Part shown: piece after piece, positions 22,369 to 38,526 of the stretch
Layout: each line of letters starts with the position of its first letter
Numbering within the stretch: the first letter of the stretch is position 1
NCBI RefSeq assembly: GCF_057098645.1
Contig: NZ_CM169472.1
Direction: 5' to 3' (one strand)
DNA: 64,000 nt
Program-made: the position numbers and the translations under genes
Notes under the pieces: model-generated
What the model saw: the letters and a program-made list of their open reading frames with translations, nothing else
The model's database searches: none
Told to the model about the DNA's origin: nothing

Positions 22369-22417
22369 ATACTATAGGGGGGTATGCTATATGTCAATAC
22401 ATACCCCCCTATAGTAT
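22369..22417. promoter_or_regulatory. Candidate FrmR operator: inverted repeat with G6/C6 tracts upstream of frmR
   Basis: ATACTATAGGGGGGTAT-(15 nt)-ATACCCCCCTATAGTAT; TACT-G6/C6-AGTA architecture typical of RcnR/FrmR-family operators. Confidence 0.7.
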
Positions 22418-22501
22418 ATAACACTGGAGAATAATTGTTGTCCGAAGCCTAACCAGGTGAACGGTCCCTCAAGACAGATGGGGACCGTTTATGTGCTATT
22501 T

Positions 22502-23548
22502 TTATGCCGCATCCGCTAAAACAAACATCCCGTAAGGATGGATTTCGAGGTAATAGTGCTCACCAATATCGGGCTGTAAACGGGTGGCGTTTACTTGTAA
22601 TAAAATCTCCTGTCCATGCCACTCTACGGTCACTTCGTACTGCGGCCCCATGTAGGCGACATGGCGAATAACACAACGCTGACTCTCTTCGCCGTGATTG
22701 CTTAAGGTGATGGCTTCCGGGCGAACGCCGACGGTGCCGCTACCTTGCGCCGGGAAATGCGCCGCGCGCGGCAGGCGATAACCGTAGATATCGACATACT
22801 CTTCGCTAAAGTTCGCCGGGAACAGGTTGGCGTCGCCCATAAAACTTGCCATAAATCGGGAGGCTGGCTGACGATAGAGATCCTGCGGTGAGCCAATCTG
22901 CATGATGTGACCTTTATTCATCACCAGCACAGTGTCGGACACCGCGAAAGCTTCACTTTGATCGTGAGTGACGTAGAGCGACGTGATATTAAACTGCTTT
23001 TGCAGCTCGCGGATCTTATCGCGCATACTGCGGCGCAGGTTGGCATCGAGGTTACTTAACGGCTCATCAAACAGCAGCACCTTTGGCTTGAGGATCAACG
23101 CGCGGGCCAGTGCCACACGCTGTTGCTGACCACCGGAAATCTGATCGACATAGCGGTCCTCGAAGCCTTCCAGATCCACCATTGCCAGCGCCTCCTTCAC
23201 CCGCTGTTTCACTTCGCTACGCGACACGCCAAGCATCTTCAGCCCGTAGCCAACGTTTTCACCCAGCGACATATGCGGGAACAGAGCGTATGACTGAAAC
23301 ACCATGCAGATATCGCGCTGTTGAATGGAACGATGCGTGACATCTTCGCCATCAATAAAAATTTGCCCTTCGCTCGGTTTTTCCAGCCCGGCAACCAGAC
23401 GCAAAATGGTGGTTTTGCCACAGCCGGAAGGACCGAGCAGCGTCACCATTTGCCCTTGTGGAATGGTGAGATTGATATTGTCGATAACCGTATTACTGCC
23501 GAATCGTTTAGTGACGTTGCGCAGTTCAACAAAATTTTTCTGACTCAT
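22502..23548 (-). CDS. afuC: ABC transporter ATP-binding subunit, AfuC/FbpC-like, about 348 aa
   Basis: Walker [10 protein letters not shown], signature [15 protein letters not shown], Walker B LLFDEP; likely start [12 protein letters not shown] with RBS ggagcg; the ORF track extends to 23560. Confidence 0.88.
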
Positions 23549-23559
23549 AGTGCGCTCCA

Positions 23560-25638
23560 TTACGCCTGGTTTTTGGCTTTAGAACGGGAGATACGAGCTT
23601 CTCCGATCAGCCAGTCAAAGAGGAAAATAATCGCCAGCATCACCACGATCAGAATCGAACCATAGGCGATGGCTACGCCATATTCGCCGTCTTCAACGCG
23701 GTTAAGAATGTAGGCGGTTGCCACGCGGGTGTCCGGCGTGACGAGAAAGACGATGGCGCTGACCGTCGTGATGGCCCGCACAAAGCTGTAGATCAGGGCC
23801 GAGAGAATGGCCGGGCGCAGCAGCGGCAGTAAAATGTGCGTAATGGTTCGCAGTGAACCCGCGCGCAGGCTGAGTGAGGCTTCATCCAGCGATTTGTCGA
23901 TCTGCCCCAGGCCTGCAATCCCGGCGCGAATACCCACCGGAACGTTACGCATCACCATCGAGATAATCACAATTGCCGCCGTTCCGGTGAGATAAACCGG
24001 AGCGCTGTTAAAGGCAAGAATATACGAAACGCCCGCCACCGTACCCGGTACGGCAAAGCACAGCATGGTGGTGAACTCGATGGTCTTTTTGCCTTTGAAT
24101 TGTTGACGCACCACCACCCAGGCGATGAGCAGGCCAAAGATAGCGGTAATGGGAGCGGCAATCCCGGCGTAGAGCAGGGTATCCAGCAGTGAAGGCCACG
24201 CGCCGTCGCTCATTCCCTGACCAAATAGCTTGATAAAGTTATCCAGCGTCAGGGTGTAGTCCACGCCCCAGTTCACCGTGAAGCTGCCGTAGAAAATGCT
24301 GCCGTAGAGCAGGGCGTTAAAGGCAATCCATATCGCAAGTATGGCGACCACGCTCCATACCAGGGTGACCGGTAGCGGCTGGACGTCGCCACGGTAGGAT
24401 TTGCCGGAAACCGTGACGTAAGAGCGTTTACCAATCCACATATACTGGATGCAGAACACCAGCAGCGAGAACAGCAGCAGGAAAGCGCCAAGGGTGCTGG
24501 CGGCCTGATAATCCAGCTGCGAGCCGGTAATATAGAAGTAAATTTGCGTCGCCAGTACGTCGAAGTTACCGCCAAGTACCAGCGGGTTACTGAAATCAGC
24601 CAGTGACTGTACCACGACGATTAAAAAGGCATTGGCGAGTGCGGGCTTCAACAACGGCACAAACACGCCGTTAAAGGTTTGCCAGCGGCTGGCGCGCAGG
24701 GTGTAGGAGGCCTCTTCCAGCGAGGGATGAATGGTTTTAATGGCCCCGTCGAGGATCATAAATGCCATTGGCGTGAATGCCAGAACCTGTGCCAGCCAGA
24801 TCCCGGTAAAACCGTACAGCCAGTTGGTGTTGGTCAGCCCAAACCACTCCACCATAAATTCCGTAACATAGCCGGAGCGCCCCATCATGAGCGTCACGCC
24901 TAAGCCGACCACAAACGGTGGCGTAACGATGGGCAAAATGGAAAAGATGCGACCAATAATGGCGCTGCGTTTAGCGATGCGCGTGGTATAAATCGCCAGC
25001 ACCAGGCCGAAGAAAGTACAGCCTATCCCCACCGCTATCGACAAGACGATAGAGTTGACGATCACCTGAACAATATGTGCCTGCGAGAGCACGGTCATAA
25101 ACGCCAGCGGGGCGAACTCTCCCGCGTCGTTGGTGAACATCGGGATAAAAATGGCGATGCTCGGCCAGACGATAAAAATGCCAATCAGCGCCACAATCGC
25201 AATCAGTGAGCCGATCACGAAGCGGTCGCCACCCAGCCATTCGAGGCGGGTTAAGGCCAGCGTCATAATCGCGCCTAGTTCGACAAACAGCACGATGGCG
25301 GCGTAGCCTAAACCGCGTCCAACCACGGTGGCGCTGATGACGATAAACGCCATACAGAGCAATGCCCAGCCGGCATCGAAATAATGACGGCTACGTTGTT
25401 CGCGCGTGGCCTCACTAAACGGGCGGACCAGCAACAGGCTCGGGAGTAAATACCACAGCCAGCTGATATTAAAATGCGACCAGCCGTACGCCCCGAGGAT
25501 CTCATCACTCGTGGACTCCAGCAGGCCATAATCGAGGCTCCAGCTCGGCAACAGGACAAATGCCAGCCAACCCAGCAAAACCCAAAGGAAAATCGCATCC
25601 CGCTTTTTCACGGGATGGAGTGCAAGTGTCTGTGACAT
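23560..25638 (-). CDS. afuB: ABC transporter fused double permease, AfuB/FbpB-like, 692 aa
   Basis: Two tandem multi-TM permease halves; its stop overlaps the longest afuC ORF. Confidence 0.85.
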
Positions 25639-25706
25639 AGCAGTTCCGGTATGGTTGGCCGGGGCAGGCGTCTGCGCTGCACCCGGAAAATACGCCTAAT
25701 GCGGGT

Positions 25707-26738
25707 TTATTTACCCATCTTCACTTCGCTGACCCATTTATTAATCAATGCCTTACGAACATCCGTGGAACCATATTTATCCATGTCGTAGTTGATTAAT
25801 TTCAGGTCGTCGAGCTTCAGTGAATTTGGCGACGTTTCGGCGGTGGTATTGGTCAGGATCTGATAAGACTTCCCTTTCTTCCACGCCAGTTCCTGAGCTT
25901 CTTTTGATAATACCCAGTCCACAAACAGTTTGGCGTTGTCGAGGTTGCGCGCGCCTTTCAGAATGCTGACGCCGCCAATTTCGTAGCCTGTACCTTCACA
26001 CGGGGAAATCAACTCCAGCGGCGCGCCCTGTTCTTTTTCCAGCGAGTAGTCATGCAGGAAGCCAATACCAATCGCCGTTTCGCCACGGGCGGCGTTACGT
26101 GCCGGGGCTATGCCTGATTTGGTGTACTGAGAGACGTTGGCGTTCAGTTGTTTTAGATAATCAAAGGCCTGATCTTCCCCCCACAGCTGCGCAAAAGTAG
26201 CCAGGGCGGTGTAGGCAGTACCGGAACTTTGCGGATCGGCAATTTGAATTTCGCCTTTATATTCCGGTTTGGTGAGATCTTTCCAGCACTTCGGCACCGG
26301 CAGGTTTTTCTCTTTCAGACGATCGGTGTTTACGCCAAAACCGAGGATCCCCACATAAACGGCAGAGGACAGATTCCCTTTCACTTTTGCCGGATCGCGG
26401 AATTTCTCCATGATCTGCTCAAGGTTAGGGGATTTATACGCCTGTAGCAGGCCCATCTCGCCAGCCTGCGATTGCGGGTCTAAAGTGCCGCCGTACCAGA
26501 CGTCAGCCTGGGGGTTTTTCTTTTCAGCATCGACTTTTGCCAGGGTGCTTCCGGAACCGTTGCGGATAAACGAGGTTTTTACATCATATTTCTCGCCAAA
26601 CGCTTTGGTTTCGGCCTCACACATTTCATTGGTGGCGCTGCAATAGACCACCAGCCGGCCTTTTGCCTGCGCGGCACCCGTTAAAGTCGCCAGCGCAACG
26701 GCAGAAGCAATCAGAGTAGAGGTAAAGGTCATTTTCAT
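25707..26738 (-). CDS. afuA: Periplasmic substrate-binding protein, AfuA/FbpA-like, about 343 aa with signal peptide
   Basis: MKMTFTSTLIASAVALATLTGAAQA signal peptide followed by a type-II binding-protein fold; the longer ORF (to 27065) overlaps the upstream gene and is an artefact. Confidence 0.85.
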   Translation of the reverse strand: MKMTFTSTLIASAVALATLTGAAQAKGRLVVYCSATNEMCEAETKAFGEKYDVKTSFIRNGSGSTLAKVDAEKKNPQADVWYGGTLDPQSQAGEMGLLQAYKSPNLEQIMEKFRDPAKVKGNLSSAVYVGILGFGVNTDRLKEKNLPVPKCWKDLTKPEYKGEIQIADPQSSGTAYTALATFAQLWGEDQAFDYLKQLNANVSQYTKSGIAPARNAARGETAIGIGFLHDYSLEKEQGAPLELISPCEGTGYEIGGVSILKGARNLDNAKLFVDWVLSKEAQELAWKKGKSYQILTNTTAETSPNSLKLDDLKLINYDMDKYGSTDVRKALINKWVSEVKMGK

Positions 26739-28051
26739 TGTTTTATCCTTCGAGCGTGAGTGGTGGTGATGCCCGCCATCAGTAACGGCATCAGCAGTAA
26801 ACCCATAAGTACTGCGGCGACCGAGAGTAAACTGAACATTCCCGGCCAGCCGTAGCGTTCGATGACCAGCGACAGCGGCCAGCCTGCCAGCGCCGCGCCA
26901 AGGTAAGCGAACAGGCCGAGAAATCCGGTGATTGAACCCGCCGCAGCTTTGTGCCCACACTCCACCGCCGCAAGTCCAATCAGCATTTGTGGGCCAAAGA
27001 CGAAAAAGCCCACGGTAAAAAAGCACACTGCCAGCAGAGCGTAGTGATGAACCGGTGCCAGCCACAGTGCGGCGACTGACACCATCAACCCCAACGTGAA
27101 CAGCAAAATCATTGGCGCTCGTTGCCCGCTAAACAGCAAATCCGATCCCCATCCGGCAAATAACGCGCCGAGTAAGCCGCCCACTTCAAACAGCATTACC
27201 GTGGCGTTGGCGCTGAGCAGGTTGACACCGTGGCTTTCCGTCAGCCAGATATTGCCCCAGTCGTTAAGCGCAATCCGGATCACATAAACCAGTACATAAG
27301 AGACGCCCAGTAGCCAGATCAGCGGATTTTGCAGCATGGTGGTGCGCAACATTTGCCACAGCCCCATCGGCGGACTTTGTTGTTCCTGACGTAACTCCAG
27401 CGGATCGTGACGCCAGTGACCAACTGTCGGTAATCCCTCTTCCTGGGGCGTGCCTTTGAGTTGTAGCGTTAACCAGATCCCTAATGCCATGCTGATTATC
27501 CCCGGTGTCAGCATCGCGGCCTGCCAGCCCCACCAGTGGGCGGCAAAGGCGCTAATCAGCGGAATAATCGCTCCGCCAATGTTGATCGACATATTCCAGC
27601 AGCCCCACCAGAAACCGCGCTCATTGCGTGAGTACCAGTGGGTCAGCAAGCGGGCACACGGTGGCCATCCCCAGCCCTGAAAAAAACCGTTCAGTGTCCA
27701 GACCACAAGCAGAAGCGTAAGTGATTCGCCAAAGGCAAACACCACGTTCAATAACCCGGTGGCGAACAAGCCGACGCCCATAAAACCGCGTTGTCCATGG
27801 CTGTCATGCCACAGTCCGGCGGTAAATTTCGACAATCCGTAGCTGAGATAAAACAGCGAACCCAGCAGGCCAATGTCGCCTTTATCCAGTCCGAGGTCGG
27901 TTTGTAGCGCCGGAAGGACGTAATTCACGCTTTTTCGCGTCAGATAAAATGCGGCGTAGCCAATAATCATGCACATCAGCAATCGCGGACGTAATGTCCG
28001 GTAGCATTGATTAATTTCTCTCGCTGAACGCGCGTGCATGGTTGTCTCCAT
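26735..28051 (-). CDS. UhpC-like sugar-phosphate sensor/transporter (MFS, organophosphate:Pi antiporter family), 438 aa
   Basis: ...YAAFYLTRKSVNYVLPALQTDLGLDKGDIGLLGSLFYLSYGLSKF... resembles UhpC/UhpT/GlpT; its stop TGA overlaps the afuA start ATG (cAATGAaa). Confidence 0.82.
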   Translation of the reverse strand: METTMHARSAREINQCYRTLRPRLLMCMIIGYAAFYLTRKSVNYVLPALQTDLGLDKGDIGLLGSLFYLSYGLSKFTAGLWHDSHGQRGFMGVGLFATGLLNVVFAFGESLTLLLVVWTLNGFFQGWGWPPCARLLTHWYSRNERGFWWGCWNMSINIGGAIIPLISAFAAHWWGWQAAMLTPGIISMALGIWLTLQLKGTPQEEGLPTVGHWRHDPLELRQEQQSPPMGLWQMLRTTMLQNPLIWLLGVSYVLVYVIRIALNDWGNIWLTESHGVNLLSANATVMLFEVGGLLGALFAGWGSDLLFSGQRAPMILLFTLGLMVSVAALWLAPVHHYALLAVCFFTVGFFVFGPQMLIGLAAVECGHKAAAGSITGFLGLFAYLGAALAGWPLSLVIERYGWPGMFSLLSVAAVLMGLLLMPLLMAGITTTHARRIKQ

Positions 28052-28123
28052 GTTGCTGACTATATGAAAATGAAAGTGAAAGGGGATGAGAGAAAATCCG
28101 GGATACCTAAGACTTTTTCCTGG

Positions 28124-29665
28124 TTATCCGGCGATTTGTTGCAAAAATGTGGGCAAGTTAACAATTACCCGCGTGCCGTGCTGTTTTTCGAGCGTTAAGT
28201 CGCCGCCCAGGGCGCTGACGCGCTCACGCATCCCCTGAATGCCAAATCCGGCCATTTTCCCGCTGGCGATCCCCACACCGTTGTCGCTGACTTCCAGATG
28301 CAATACCTCTCCCTGCTGGCGCAGGATAATCGTCACTTCGCTGGCTTCGGCGTGTTTACAGACGTTATTGAGCAACTCCTGTAATAACCGATACAAGGTA
28401 AAGCGCACCGTTTCGTTTTCTGGTGTGGAGTTCAGTTGATAGGCAAACTGGCAATGAATGCCGCGTTCACTAAAGGCAAATTCATTAATCAGATGCAACA
28501 ACGCTTCGCGAAATGTCAGTTCATCAAGCGCGGGAGGCCGCAACTGGCGCAGCAATTGGCGGGTGGAGAGATGAATGCGGCGGGCGAGCTCATTGATTTG
28601 GCTGGCTGCGGATTGAATTTGCGCCGGATCACGCGCCCGCTTCACCAGTTGCGACTGGATCTGAATGGCGGTGATGTTCTGACCGATTTCGTCGTGCAGC
28701 TCTCGCGCCAGGTTTTTTCGCGTGTCCTCCTCGGTGTGGATCAGCTTTTCCGCCAATGCCCGCCGCGCTGCCAGCTCGGCCTCCAGCCGTTGTCGGTAAT
28801 GGTGCAGGTTTAGCGCCAGATGTTGCTGGCGACTGATGGCAATGCCCAGGCCAATTCCCAGCAAGGCCTGGGTCGCGAGGAAAATCTCCAGCTCCACCAG
28901 GTTACTAAAGCCCACGCCAACCTGGCGGGCGATGGTGATCATCATGCTGCCCAAAAGCCCGGAGAGTACGCCACCTTGCCAGCCAAATTTCCACGCCATC
29001 ACCACATTGGGCAAAAAGACCACGATCAACAGCAGACGTTCAATTTCAGGTGACAGCACCATCTGAGTGCCGATACCAATAATAAAAAACAGGCTACACC
29101 AGATGATTAAAGAGGTACGCAAGGGGGGATTATGCGTATCGAGTCCCAGGAGCTGGTAGCGATGCTGCTGGCGCAGAAACTCAAAGATAAGATAGACAAA
29201 CGGCGTCAGTAATACGCCGCCGGTAAATGAGGTCAAACCCGGCAGCATTATTGGGCCTGACATAAAAGGGGAGAGCAGGGCGGTATTCAACAATGAAGCT
29301 GCCGTGACAGTGGCTAACAGCAACGTCAGACGCTGCCAGTAAAGTGGAAAACGGTGCCAGAAGTTTTGTGCAAGGAGGGCAGGAAACAGGCTAATAACCG
29401 GCGTTGCCAGCATGAGATAACCGTTCAATAGCTGTTCACTATGGAGCCAGAACATCATCAGCAAAGGGGGGAGCACCAACGCAGGCCAGTAGCGGCGAGA
29501 GAGCAAAATAACAAGGGCGAGATAAACTCCCTGCGGGAGAAACAACACCGCCTGTTGACCGTTATTGGTCAGATAAAAGCTGAGCGTCCACAGCATCAGC
29601 CAGCCGGTTCCCCAGGCCAGCACAATAAACAGCGAAATCACCCAATGACGAAGATTGCGCGACAT
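28124..29665 (-). CDS. UhpB-like membrane sensor histidine kinase, 513 aa
   Basis: Multi-TM N-terminal domain, H-box ELHDEIGQNITAIQIQ and C-terminal HATPase region; start ATG overlaps the stop of the upstream regulator (TAATG). Confidence 0.85.
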   Translation of the reverse strand: MSRNLRHWVISLFIVLAWGTGWLMLWTLSFYLTNNGQQAVLFLPQGVYLALVILLSRRYWPALVLPPLLMMFWLHSEQLLNGYLMLATPVISLFPALLAQNFWHRFPLYWQRLTLLLATVTAASLLNTALLSPFMSGPIMLPGLTSFTGGVLLTPFVYLIFEFLRQQHRYQLLGLDTHNPPLRTSLIIWCSLFFIIGIGTQMVLSPEIERLLLIVVFLPNVVMAWKFGWQGGVLSGLLGSMMITIARQVGVGFSNLVELEIFLATQALLGIGLGIAISRQQHLALNLHHYRQRLEAELAARRALAEKLIHTEEDTRKNLARELHDEIGQNITAIQIQSQLVKRARDPAQIQSAASQINELARRIHLSTRQLLRQLRPPALDELTFREALLHLINEFAFSERGIHCQFAYQLNSTPENETVRFTLYRLLQELLNNVCKHAEASEVTIILRQQGEVLHLEVSDNGVGIASGKMAGFGIQGMRERVSALGGDLTLEKQHGTRVIVNLPTFLQQIAG

Positions 29666-30294
29666 TAATGCCCCGCCAGCAGATGGTGGTCGAGCGCAAA
29701 ATGTACCAGTTCAATGGTGCTATGGCAGTTCAGTTTTCCCAGCACATTGGCGCGATGCACATGTACCGTTTTATGACTGAGTTCGAGTTTAAAGGCGATC
29801 TCTTTAACGCTGTCTCCTTTGACCAGTAAATCAAACACTTCACGTTCTCGTGGGGTGAGAATTTCCAGCGCCTGGGCGGGTTGCCCGCCGCCGCGTAAAG
29901 CCCGAATCGCATCGGCACAGAGATAATGCCCGCCCAGCCCGACCGAGCGCACCGCCTGTACTAACTCTTCCGGCCCACAGCGTTTGGTTAAATACCCGCT
30001 GGCACCGGCATCCAGCGCGCTTTGCACAAAGGTTGGCGCGTCATAAATGCTAAGAATAATGGCGCGAAATTGCGGTTTTTGTGCACGCAGGCGCTTAAGC
30101 AAACTGAGGCCGTTTTCGTCCGGCATGGCAATATCAATGACGGCAACATTGACGTCATCACGGATTAATGCCGACCATGCCTGCGCGGCACTACTGTACT
30201 GACCAATGACCTCCAGATCGTCTTCCAGAGAGAGTAATTGTGCGAAGCCAGAGCGCACCACCACATGGTCATCCACCAGCACTACCCGAATCAT
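29665..30294 (-). CDS. UhpA-like response regulator (NarL/FixJ family, LuxR-type HTH), 209 aa
   Basis: MIRVVLVDDHVVVRSGFAQLL... receiver domain with Asp in VAVIDIAMPD; C-terminal HTH ...KEIAFKLELSHKTVHVHRANVLGKL. Confidence 0.87.
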   Translation of the reverse strand: MIRVVLVDDHVVVRSGFAQLLSLEDDLEVIGQYSSAAQAWSALIRDDVNVAVIDIAMPDENGLSLLKRLRAQKPQFRAIILSIYDAPTFVQSALDAGASGYLTKRCGPEELVQAVRSVGLGGHYLCADAIRALRGGGQPAQALEILTPREREVFDLLVKGDSVKEIAFKLELSHKTVHVHRANVLGKLNCHSTIELVHFALDHHLLAGH

Positions 30295-30596
30295 ACTTTT
30301 CTTCTCTTATTATCTAATTCTCCTATCATGCATCACGGCGCGGCGCTGGCAATCAACCAGCGACAGATATGGAATGGATGTAACAAAATGGCAATAATTT
30401 GCCGGAGCGCGCACATCTTATCTGGCTTGTGAACCGGCGGGATACGTTCGCCAAAACCGCAAAATGCGCAAACTCGCTAACCATTGCCGATTTTTTTCTA
30501 AAAACGCTTTGTTCTTAACAAGACCTTTTAATTCCTTTATCAAACTGACCCGCAACGAAATACTGCTCCCATAACAAGACAGGGGAGCAGACAATC

Positions 30597-31559
30597 ATGG
30601 CAATTTCATCGCGTAACACTCTTCTTGCCGCACTGGCATTCATCGCTTTTCAGGCGCAGGCGGTGAACGTCACCGTGGCGTATCAAACCTCAGCCGAACC
30701 GGCGAAAGTGGCTCAGGCCGACAACACCTTTGCTAAAGAAAGCGGAGCAACCGTGGACTGGCGTAAGTTTGACAGCGGAGCCAGCATCGTGCGGGCGCTG
30801 GCTTCTGGCGACGTGCAAATCGGCAACCTTGGTTCCAGCCCGTTAGCGGTTGCAGCCAGCCAACAGGTGCCGATTGAAGTCTTCTTGCTGGCGTCAAAAC
30901 TGGGTAACTCCGAAGCGCTGGTGGTAAAGAAAACTATCAGCAAACCGGAAGATCTGATTGGCAAACGCATCGCCGTACCGTTTATCTCCACCACCCACTA
31001 CAGCCTGCTGGCGGCGCTGAAACACTGGGGCATTAAACCCGGGCAAGTGGAGATTGTGAACCTGCAGCCGCCCGCGATTATCGCTGCCTGGCAGCGGGGA
31101 GATATTGATGGTGCTTATGTCTGGGCACCGGCGGTTAACGCCCTGGAAAAAGACGGCAAGGTGTTGACCGATTCTGAACAGGTCGGGCAGTGGGGCGCGC
31201 CAACGCTGGACGTTTGGGTGGTGCGCAAAAATTTTGCCGAGAAACATCCTGAGGTCGTGAAAGCGTTCGCTAAAAGCGCCATCGATGCTCAGCAACCGTA
31301 CATTGCTAACCCAGACGTGTGGCTGAAACAGCCGGAAAACATCAGCAAACTGGCGCGTTTAAGCGGCGTGCCGGAAGGTGACGTGCCGGGGCTGGTGAAG
31401 GGGAATACCTATCTGACGCCGCAGCAACAAACGGCAGAACTGACCGGACCGGTGAACAAAGCGATCATCGACACCGCGCAGTTTTTGAAAGAGCAGGGCA
31501 AGGTCCCGGCTGTAGCGAATGATTACAGCCAGTACGTTACCTCGCGCTTCGTGCAATAA
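30597..31559 (+). CDS. tauA: Taurine ABC transporter periplasmic binding protein TauA, 320 aa
   Basis: MAISSRNTLLAALAFIAFQAQAVNVTVAYQTSAEPAKVAQAD... Confidence 0.95.
   Translation: MAISSRNTLLAALAFIAFQAQAVNVTVAYQTSAEPAKVAQADNTFAKESGATVDWRKFDSGASIVRALASGDVQIGNLGSSPLAVAASQQVPIEVFLLASKLGNSEALVVKKTISKPEDLIGKRIAVPFISTTHYSLLAALKHWGIKPGQVEIVNLQPPAIIAAWQRGDIDGAYVWAPAVNALEKDGKVLTDSEQVGQWGAPTLDVWVVRKNFAEKHPEVVKAFAKSAIDAQQPYIANPDVWLKQPENISKLARLSGVPEGDVPGLVKGNTYLTPQQQTAELTGPVNKAIIDTAQFLKEQGKVPAVANDYSQYVTSRFVQ

Positions 31560-35616: not shown

Positions 35617-38526
<2,910 letters not shown>

Follow-up and report, generated by a model that had tools for sequence, protein, structure and literature searches.

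Does the short stretch of DNA between two diverging genes tie their expression together, or does it simply hold two promoters back to back? This question is raised by a locus inside a 64,000-nt window (the whole stretch of DNA analysed, from contig NZ_CM169472.1 of NCBI RefSeq assembly GCF_057098645.1), in which the response-regulator gene fusR, on the minus strand, and tauA, the first gene of the tauABCD operon, on the plus strand, are separated by a spacer of 302 bp with 44% G+C (30295-30596). fusR heads a cassette known from O-island 20 (OI-20) of enterohaemorrhagic Escherichia coli (EHEC), and the original prediction for this locus was that cassette transcription starting in the spacer could be coupled to, or interfere with, the Cbl- and CysB-dependent promoter of tauA. 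Our comparison across species suggests instead that the spacer is quite probably a conventional divergent region, in which two independent back-to-back promoter modules are joined by filler.

Two promoter modules and a linker

A TauA scan of one genome per species yielded 80 loci, and in 33 of these species (tblastn) fusR, followed by fusK and the uhpC-like gene z0461, lies directly upstream of and divergent from tauA, with FusR identities of 80-97%. Column conservation was calculated from 25 aligned spacers, with the flanking coding sequences as control. In this control, columns conserved at 90% or more made up 14-21% of the third codon positions of fusR and tauA and 84-90% of the first and second positions. 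By the same measure both predicted fusR promoter hexamers reached 100%, with 38% in the 16-bp spacer between them, and the block upstream of these hexamers reached 69%. On the other side of the spacer, tauA blocks 1 and 2 reached 68% and 80%, and the tauA-proximal end (30557-30596) 70%. The fusR leader was at only 17% and the linker region (30401-30472) at 0% (Table 1).

The fusR side occupies ~106 bp (30295-30400) and consists of a predicted sigma-70 promoter and an upstream block with two heptads. The promoter (TTGCCA-16 bp-CATGAT) matches the consensus at 9 of 12 positions, and the pattern TTG[CT]CA, exactly 16 bp, CAT[CG]AT, placed 29-31 nt before the ATG, was present in all 34 sequences; the fusR start codon itself aligned with the starts of all 33 orthologues. 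Hexamers kept at a fixed spacing, with a sequence between them that varies, are characteristic of a genuine promoter, and transcription would start near 30318 and proceed leftwards through fusR and fusK, probably from a promoter of the regulator-gene type, like that of uhpABC. The heptads of the upstream block are ATGGAAT (30369-30375) and ATGTAAC (30378-30384), the latter occurring twice in most genera, and the block keeps a constant, gap-free distance to the fusR -35 in the 25 sequences. In addition, the heptads are kept where the cassette sits in integrase islands, and no second heptad pair beyond chance was found within the 64-kb window. The block is likely an operator for some regulator. 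Our literature search found no mapped fusR promoter or Z0463 transcription start; fusKR transcription has been reported to be repressed via QseB and QseF (PMC5120142, PMC4810492).

Several candidate factors for the heptad block were tried and rejected. Comparison by eye with CRP, FNR, PhoB, OmpR-type, NarL and Cra motifs gave nothing convincing, and neither did comparison with the published 29-nt FusR site in ler (PMC11644481). The block has no resemblance to the CCAGG/CCTGG repeats of the K-12 uhpT promoter, which speaks against UhpA-type sites, and reading the whole spacer (30295-30596) against that promoter revealed no CCTGG/CCAGG-type motif. The upstream region of K-12 uhpA, taken as a paralogue comparison, is just 75 bp long after ilvN and was uninformative.

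On the tauA side, cross-genus conservation begins at ~30472 and all conserved tauA blocks fall within 30473-30596, so that every conserved tauA element lies inside the 138 bp common to cassette-free E. coli. Block 1 reads CTAACCATTGCCGnTTTTTTTCTAAAAACG in the conservation profile. The A/T tracts pointed out in the original prediction are indeed there (T7 at 30491-30497 and A5 at 30500-30504), both inside the most conserved tauA-side block, and the potential -10 that it placed near tauA is AATACT, part of a run (GAAATACTGC) whose conservation is at least 90%. Cbl controls PtauABCD, and the regulatory inputs to tau are Cbl and CysB (PMC11495319). The weak hexamers of the window (TTATCA-16 bp-AATACT) are what is expected for an activator-dependent promoter, and the bases flanking the -35 in block 2 could be activator contacts. 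In K-12 the tauA start is reported to lie 26-27 nt before the ATG and the Cbl footprint to extend from -112 to -68 (van der Ploeg et al. 1997). The tauA side would be an activator-dependent promoter with its start at 30570/30571 and two conserved upstream blocks. Carried over to the window, the reported footprint would presumably cover ~30459-30503; we take its promoter-proximal two-thirds to align with block 1 and its distal edge to coincide with the cassette boundary. The distal block would match the K-12 Cbl site in position, and sulfate starvation would induce tauABCD through Cbl and CysB in the same way as it does in K-12.

Two repeats were also observed in this module. A perfect 8-bp inverted repeat (CTGCTCCC / GGGAGCAG, 30563-30570 and 30583-30590) encloses the tauA start position reported for K-12 and takes in the ribosome-binding site; its left arm would be untranscribed if the start is 30570/30571, and it is only partly retained in other genera. 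The 9-bp sequence TAACAAGAC is directly repeated, at 30516 and at 30572.

Between the two modules lies a linker of ~58-72 bp in the window, which would be dispensable and whose length differs among species from nearly absent to several kb. The whole spacer measures 239-344 bp in 24 species and 419-3,625 bp in the other nine, in which it is enlarged by insertions in the linker and the fusR hexamers are retained (L011, L021, L023, L042, L045, L046, L051, L053, L060). Among 5,426 complete E. coli genomes, the set used for all allele and architecture counts, the linker was covered in only 450. Its similarity to the consensus of the repetitive extragenic palindromic (REP) element scored 22, which was equalled by 2.2% of shuffles and hints weakly at a REP origin. 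The linker RNA fold was not stable (z = +1.08), and the lone Rfam match in the spacer had E = 0.98 and 18 bits against a gathering score of 85. Small open reading frames (ORFs; 25-64 aa) overlap the spacer, but they extend across the non-conserved linker or over the starts of the neighbouring genes, and none is conserved.

Table 1. Positions of the genes, promoter elements and conserved blocks at the fusR-tauA spacer, in window coordinates.
Feature	Position	Strand	Basis or remark
fusR (Z0463-type), response-regulator gene	29665..30294	-	209-aa ORF; heads the fusR-fusK-z0461(uhpC-like)-afuABC cassette, EHEC OI-20
Predicted fusR 5' leader with purine-rich ribosome-binding stretch AAGAGAAG	30295..30317	-	-10-to-ATG distance 29-31 nt in 34/34 sequences
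Predicted fusR -10, CATGAT (CATCAT in other genera)	30325..30330	-	Scan; 6/6 columns at >=90%; in 34/34
Predicted fusR -35, TTGCCA (5/6 to TTGACA)	30347..30352	-	Scan; spacing exactly 16 bp in 34/34
Conserved block, two direct heptads (7-2-7), then AAAATnGCAATA	30365..30400	.	Candidate operator or activator site
Non-conserved linker, 60% G+C, weakly REP-like remnant	30401..30458	.	Only in E. coli genomes with the cassette adjoining tauA
tauA promoter module, family-wide ('non-K-12') allele, 138 bp	30459..30596	+	97% identical in E. coli with frmR directly beside tauA
tauA block 1, CTAACCATTGCCGATTTTTTTCTAAAAACG	30473..30506	+	Candidate Cbl box; conserved; partly kept in K-12 allele
tauA block 2, TTTTAATTCCTTTATCAAA	30525..30544	+	Weak -35 TTATCA at 30537-30542, 16-bp spacing; hexamer inferred from distance to -10
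tauA -10, AATACT	30559..30564	+	K-12 and window 100% identical from here; allele breakpoint 30558/30559
Position equivalent to K-12 tauA start	30570..30571	+	Reported for K-12; falls within the conserved run CATAACAA, 30570-30577
tauA, first gene of tauABCD	30597..31559	+	TauA equivalog, full-length, 695 bits vs cut-off 490

Shared control and other readings

The layout described above gives no support to the shared or overlapping control, coupling or interference that had been proposed: the modules are parted by a variable linker with no conserved column, and the promoters are predicted to diverge from starts ~253 bp apart. That the island and tauA promoters share or overlap elements, with island transcription coupled to or interfering with the Cbl/CysB-dependent activation of tauA, is in our view improbable. 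The proposal draws on the two genes diverging across just 302 bp, on the conservation of the pairing in 33 of 80 species and on the established fact that divergent promoters ~250 bp apart can affect each other via transcription-generated negative supercoiling. However, transcription from both predicted starts runs outward, and promoters that point apart are not expected to collide with or occlude each other. No conserved element was found at a fixed distance from both promoters in the 25 aligned spacers, across a spacer range of 239-3,625 bp. The variable length of the linker, which takes the spacer from 239 bp to 3.6 kb, argues against a phase- or distance-dependent shared operator, and its freedom to vary suggests that supercoiling coupling, if any, is not selected for. 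Furthermore, all conserved tauA blocks are present in cassette-free strains too, and the fusR module is kept as a unit in islands far from tauA. The best-supported reading of these comparisons is two autonomous modules facing outward, the one at fusR acting as a component of the cassette and the one at tauA as a component of the core tau operon. It is also very unlikely that the heptad block is a distal tauA element, for example an upstream CysB site, or a bidirectional operator. For K-12, CysB has been reported to bind at several positions upstream of the tau promoter; conservation of the block is strong and, in the shortest spacers, it is only ~20-30 bp from the tauA-side conserved region. 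But its distance to the fusR -35 is fixed, whereas its distance to the tauA blocks can differ by anything from tens to thousands of bp, it stays with fusR in integrase islands without tauA nearby, and it is missing in cassette-free strains and in K-12, whose tau operon works.

Some points weigh against two independent modules as we have drawn them. The match of the sigma-70 scan alone is not significant: the promoter prediction called for in the original prediction did find one site, the fusR promoter, with a simple consensus scan, against 0.5 expected by chance, and it is the cross-species conservation (hexamers at 100% and blocks at 68-80%, against 14-21% at third codon positions) that gives the promoter its significance. 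The tauA start and the Cbl footprint are placed from positions reported for K-12, and the starts of fusR and tauA are both inferred. Likeness of the tauA block to the upstream region of ssuE, the other Cbl-dependent promoter, was rejected as support for a Cbl box because it is not significant: in K-12 the best 30-mer matches at 19 of 30 positions, a value also reached in 57 of 300 shuffles, and the window allele is without such a match. The candidate heptad block resembles neither the uhpT repeats nor the palindrome of the fusK-z0461 gap described below. Finally, the cross-genus synteny could reflect a functional link that is invisible to sequence analysis. It is nonetheless highly improbable that fusR and tauA have been kept divergent across at least eight enterobacterial genera by such a link, for instance a heptad-bound regulator or supercoiling that ties the scavenging of taurine under sulfur starvation to the sensing of host-derived sugars or sugar phosphates in the gut.

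Alleles of the tauA promoter and history of the cassette

The DNA between frmR and tauA takes different forms in E. coli. In the K-12 type the order is frmR-yaiO-yaiX-yaiP-yaiS-tauA, with a yaiS-tauA spacer of 615 bp and 30% G+C (L001 2118-2732); in the empty type, as in strain AR_0081, frmR is followed by ~75 bp with a REP-like element and then by tauA (L002 3926-4000); and in the window an 8,024-bp cassette (22435-30458) stands between frmR and tauA. The sequence of the window is that of an EHEC-like E. coli: over 29500-31000 it shares 100% identity with E. coli O145 RM9872 and 99.4% with a strain of O55:H7. The alignment called for in the original prediction shows that the K-12 tauA upstream region is not intact in the window and that the two match only from the -10 hexamer at 30559 onward. 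Compared with the K-12 tauABCD promoter, the window has the same operon downstream and 100% identity from the -10 hexamer to the ATG (-38 to -1), but identity drops to 53% from -138 to -39 and to 47% from -302 to -139, where the sequences are unrelated. Against the empty-type strain, identity is 97% from -138 to -1 and 48% from -220 to -139. The tauA coding sequence of the window is, on the other hand, nearer to K-12 than to the empty type (99.1% vs 96.7%), which makes the locus a mosaic, and these opposite affinities of coding sequence and promoter point to a recombination breakpoint at the -10 hexamer (30558/30559).

Despite this divergence, the K-12 allele retains the cores of both blocks, the T-rich CCG.TTTTTT..CTAA.AA and TAATTC.TTTA, which indicates that it is a diverged homologue of the same promoter and not unrelated DNA. 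The window-type promoter allele was found in 1,009 genomes (~19% of E. coli) and the K-12-type allele in ~4,363 (~80%), 804 of them only 80-90% identical to K-12; the cassette (fus-type) spacer accounted for 450 genomes and the empty-type junction for 595. Outside E. coli the picture was different. Of ~70 species compared over the 98 bp that precede the -10 region, almost all had higher identity to the window allele (~0.6-0.95) than to that of K-12 (~0.52-0.67); in a few very distant genera the two values were nearly tied, and the sole clear exception was E. whittamii, which also has yaiS and is the only species besides E. coli with a K-12-type tauA upstream allele among the ~80 sampled. The window allele has 41-44% G+C, and a study of H-NS binding at AT-rich 'promoter islands' includes the K-12 yaiS/tauA spacer in its list of them (PMC3661553). 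K-12, which the original prediction took as the reference for the native tauA promoter, therefore carries a divergent AT-rich allele, and the allele conserved across Enterobacteriaceae is that of the window. The prediction of an island junction fared better in part: a polymorphism boundary does lie inside the spacer, at 30458/30459, but it does not mark an insertion into the tau promoter, given that fusR and tauA are divergent neighbours in 33 of the 80 species.

These species include many Citrobacter, the Klebsiella oxytoca group, Raoultella, several Enterobacter, Leclercia, Silvania, Lelliottia and Huaxiibacter, so the adjacency is an old enterobacterial synteny rather than the scar of an insertion specific to EHEC. 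The arrangement is a chromosomal block in K. oxytoca, C. amalonaticus and E. wuhouensis, hemB-(acyltransferase)-tauDCBA<>fusR-fusK-MFS-afuABC (MFS, major facilitator superfamily gene), and the neighbour past afuC varies. Comparison with empty-site strains gave sharp presence/absence boundaries for the cassette at 22434/22435 and 30458/30459. No integrase, tRNA, target-site duplication or terminal inverted repeat was found at its ends (22435 and 30458), which share nothing longer than a single 7-mer match, and its G+C content is 54%, against 52% for the window. At the left boundary (22390-22434) the window retains in full the long frmR-adjacent palindrome ATACTATAGGGGGGTATGC...GCATACCCCCCTATAGTAT, which is presumably the operator of FrmR. 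In the other direction, beyond hemB, the window carries an ORF of 962 aa (35617-38505), for which the annotation of the identical O145 genome gives an outer-membrane protein of the autotransporter kind, and the Citrobacter and Enterobacter loci are likewise flanked by autotransporters.

The cassette also occurs elsewhere in E. coli. Another 65 genomes match the window over only the first 94 bp upstream of fusR, and in the two of these that we examined the six-gene cassette lies beside a tyrosine integrase, at tRNA-Sec (selC) in C10 (L005 1208-10847) and beside ulaE in PF9285 (L004 1208-10464). Reviews describe FusKR as a recent lateral acquisition confined to O157:H7 (PMC11644481, PMC4810492), one of them giving its source as 'possibly from E. 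faecalis' (PMC4810492). We found the cassette in O145, in O55:H7 and in further E. coli as well, with 450 genomes carrying it at the tauA site, and its tauA-linked synteny in enterobacteria does not fit the origin in E. faecalis given in PMC4810492.

An ancient pairing would mean that most E. coli have lost the cassette, leaving a REP element, or now carry the yaiO-yaiS segment together with the divergent AT-rich allele upstream of tauA. A different history, in which O157, O55 and O145 acquired the cassette recently by homologous recombination anchored on tauA and its promoter, with 30458/30459 as the recombination scar, is a real possibility but a doubtful one. It would account for the presence of the cassette at the tauA site in only 450 of the 5,426 E. 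coli genomes, for the empty arrangement of E. albertii and of a cryptic Escherichia clade, and for the mosaic of tauA coding sequence and promoter allele; it also agrees with the mobility of the cassette in E. coli, as seen in the integrase islands at tRNA-Sec and near ulaE, and with the lateral acquisition stated in the reviews (PMC11644481, PMC4810492). It sits less well with the chromosomal position of the divergent pair, with hemB past tauD, in many genera, with cassette ends free of integrase, tRNA, target-site duplication and terminal inverted repeat, and with a G+C content close to that of the window (54% vs 52%). Under either history the donor arrangement would be enterobacterial and already linked to tauA, and not from Enterococcus.

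The fusK-z0461 gap and comparison with known systems

The genes at the two ends of the spacer were assigned consistently. The ORF list, the NCBIfam models and the RefSeq annotation agree with the gene starts first proposed (30294, minus strand; 30597, plus strand) and with the 302-bp divergent spacer between them, and the annotation of the 100%-identical O145 genome has the same two genes at the spacer ends. tauA, tauB, tauC and tauD are all equivalog matches in NCBIfam. The fusR product is a NarL/FixJ-type response regulator whose top NCBIfam model is UhpA, at 193 bits and under the cut-off of 258, and FusK scores 380 bits against the UhpB equivalog, below its cut-off of 408. The nearest models of FusR, FusK and Z0461 are UhpA, UhpB and UhpC, and ABC transporter genes come next. 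The names afuABC, Z0461, fusK (Z0462) and fusR (Z0463) for the OI-20 genes follow PMC4546632, PMC11644481 and PMC6199705.

A second candidate control site lies inside the cassette. The 72-bp gap between fusK and z0461 (28052-28123, minus strand) is near-invariant in 27 sequences (the window and 26 species loci) and reads CCAGGAAAAAGTCTTAG-N7-8-GGACTTTCTCTCATCC...TATAGT...GGAGAC-ATG. It contains CCAGG and the inverted repeat GAAAAAGTC-N13-GACTTTCTC; its -35 is poor, its -10 is TATAGT and its ribosome-binding site is GGAG. By analogy with the uhpT promoter, this gap is probably the FusR-dependent, signal-responsive promoter of z0461-afuABC, which fits the reported regulation of z0461 by FusKR (PMC6199705). 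The gap motif is missing from the fusR-tauA spacer, and the heptad block is unlike the gap palindrome.

The system thus shares with K-12 uhpABC/uhpT its nearest relatives, UhpA-UhpB-UhpC for FusR-FusK-Z0461, and regulator genes with a promoter of their own; the good fusR -35 and the lack of UhpA-like repeats beside it fit a regulator-gene promoter. It differs in that FusR and FusK fall below the equivalog cut-offs and the transporter is the ABC system AfuABC instead of UhpT, and the CCAGG/CCTGG repeats of K-12 uhpT differ in sequence and position from the candidate operator of the cassette, the inverted repeat in the fusK-z0461 gap. The genes and their order are the same as in FusKR (Z0462/Z0463)/Z0461/AfuABC of EHEC O-island 20 (Pacheco et al. 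2012; Sit et al. 2015), but in these accounts the island is EHEC-specific and acquired, whereas here the cassette stands beside tauA in 33 of 80 enterobacterial species. In its divergence and short spacer the fusR-tauA pair is like the shared-operator pairs of LysR-type regulators and their targets, or the supercoiling-coupled ilvY-ilvC; unlike them, it has no shared conserved element and its linker is variable in length. To our knowledge, neither fusR nor tauA encodes the other's regulator. The fusR-tauA spacer is an ordinary divergent promoter region, with an intact tauA promoter and an ancient gene pairing.

The fusR promoter, the heptad block and the fusK-z0461 palindrome are candidates for work on FusKR, QseB and QseF and on sugar-phosphate uptake. 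If the functional link considered above were true, the control of EHEC virulence via FusKR would receive an input of sulfur status through this spacer. In addition, the K-12 promoter on which the Cbl and CysB sites were defined is a divergent allele, and those results may not hold unchanged in EHEC and the rest of the E. coli that have the window-type allele, nor in Citrobacter, Klebsiella and Enterobacter. Lastly, a widespread enterobacterial cassette that is linked to tauA alters the reading of the origin of FusKR-Z0461-AfuABC and of its place as an EHEC 'innovation'.

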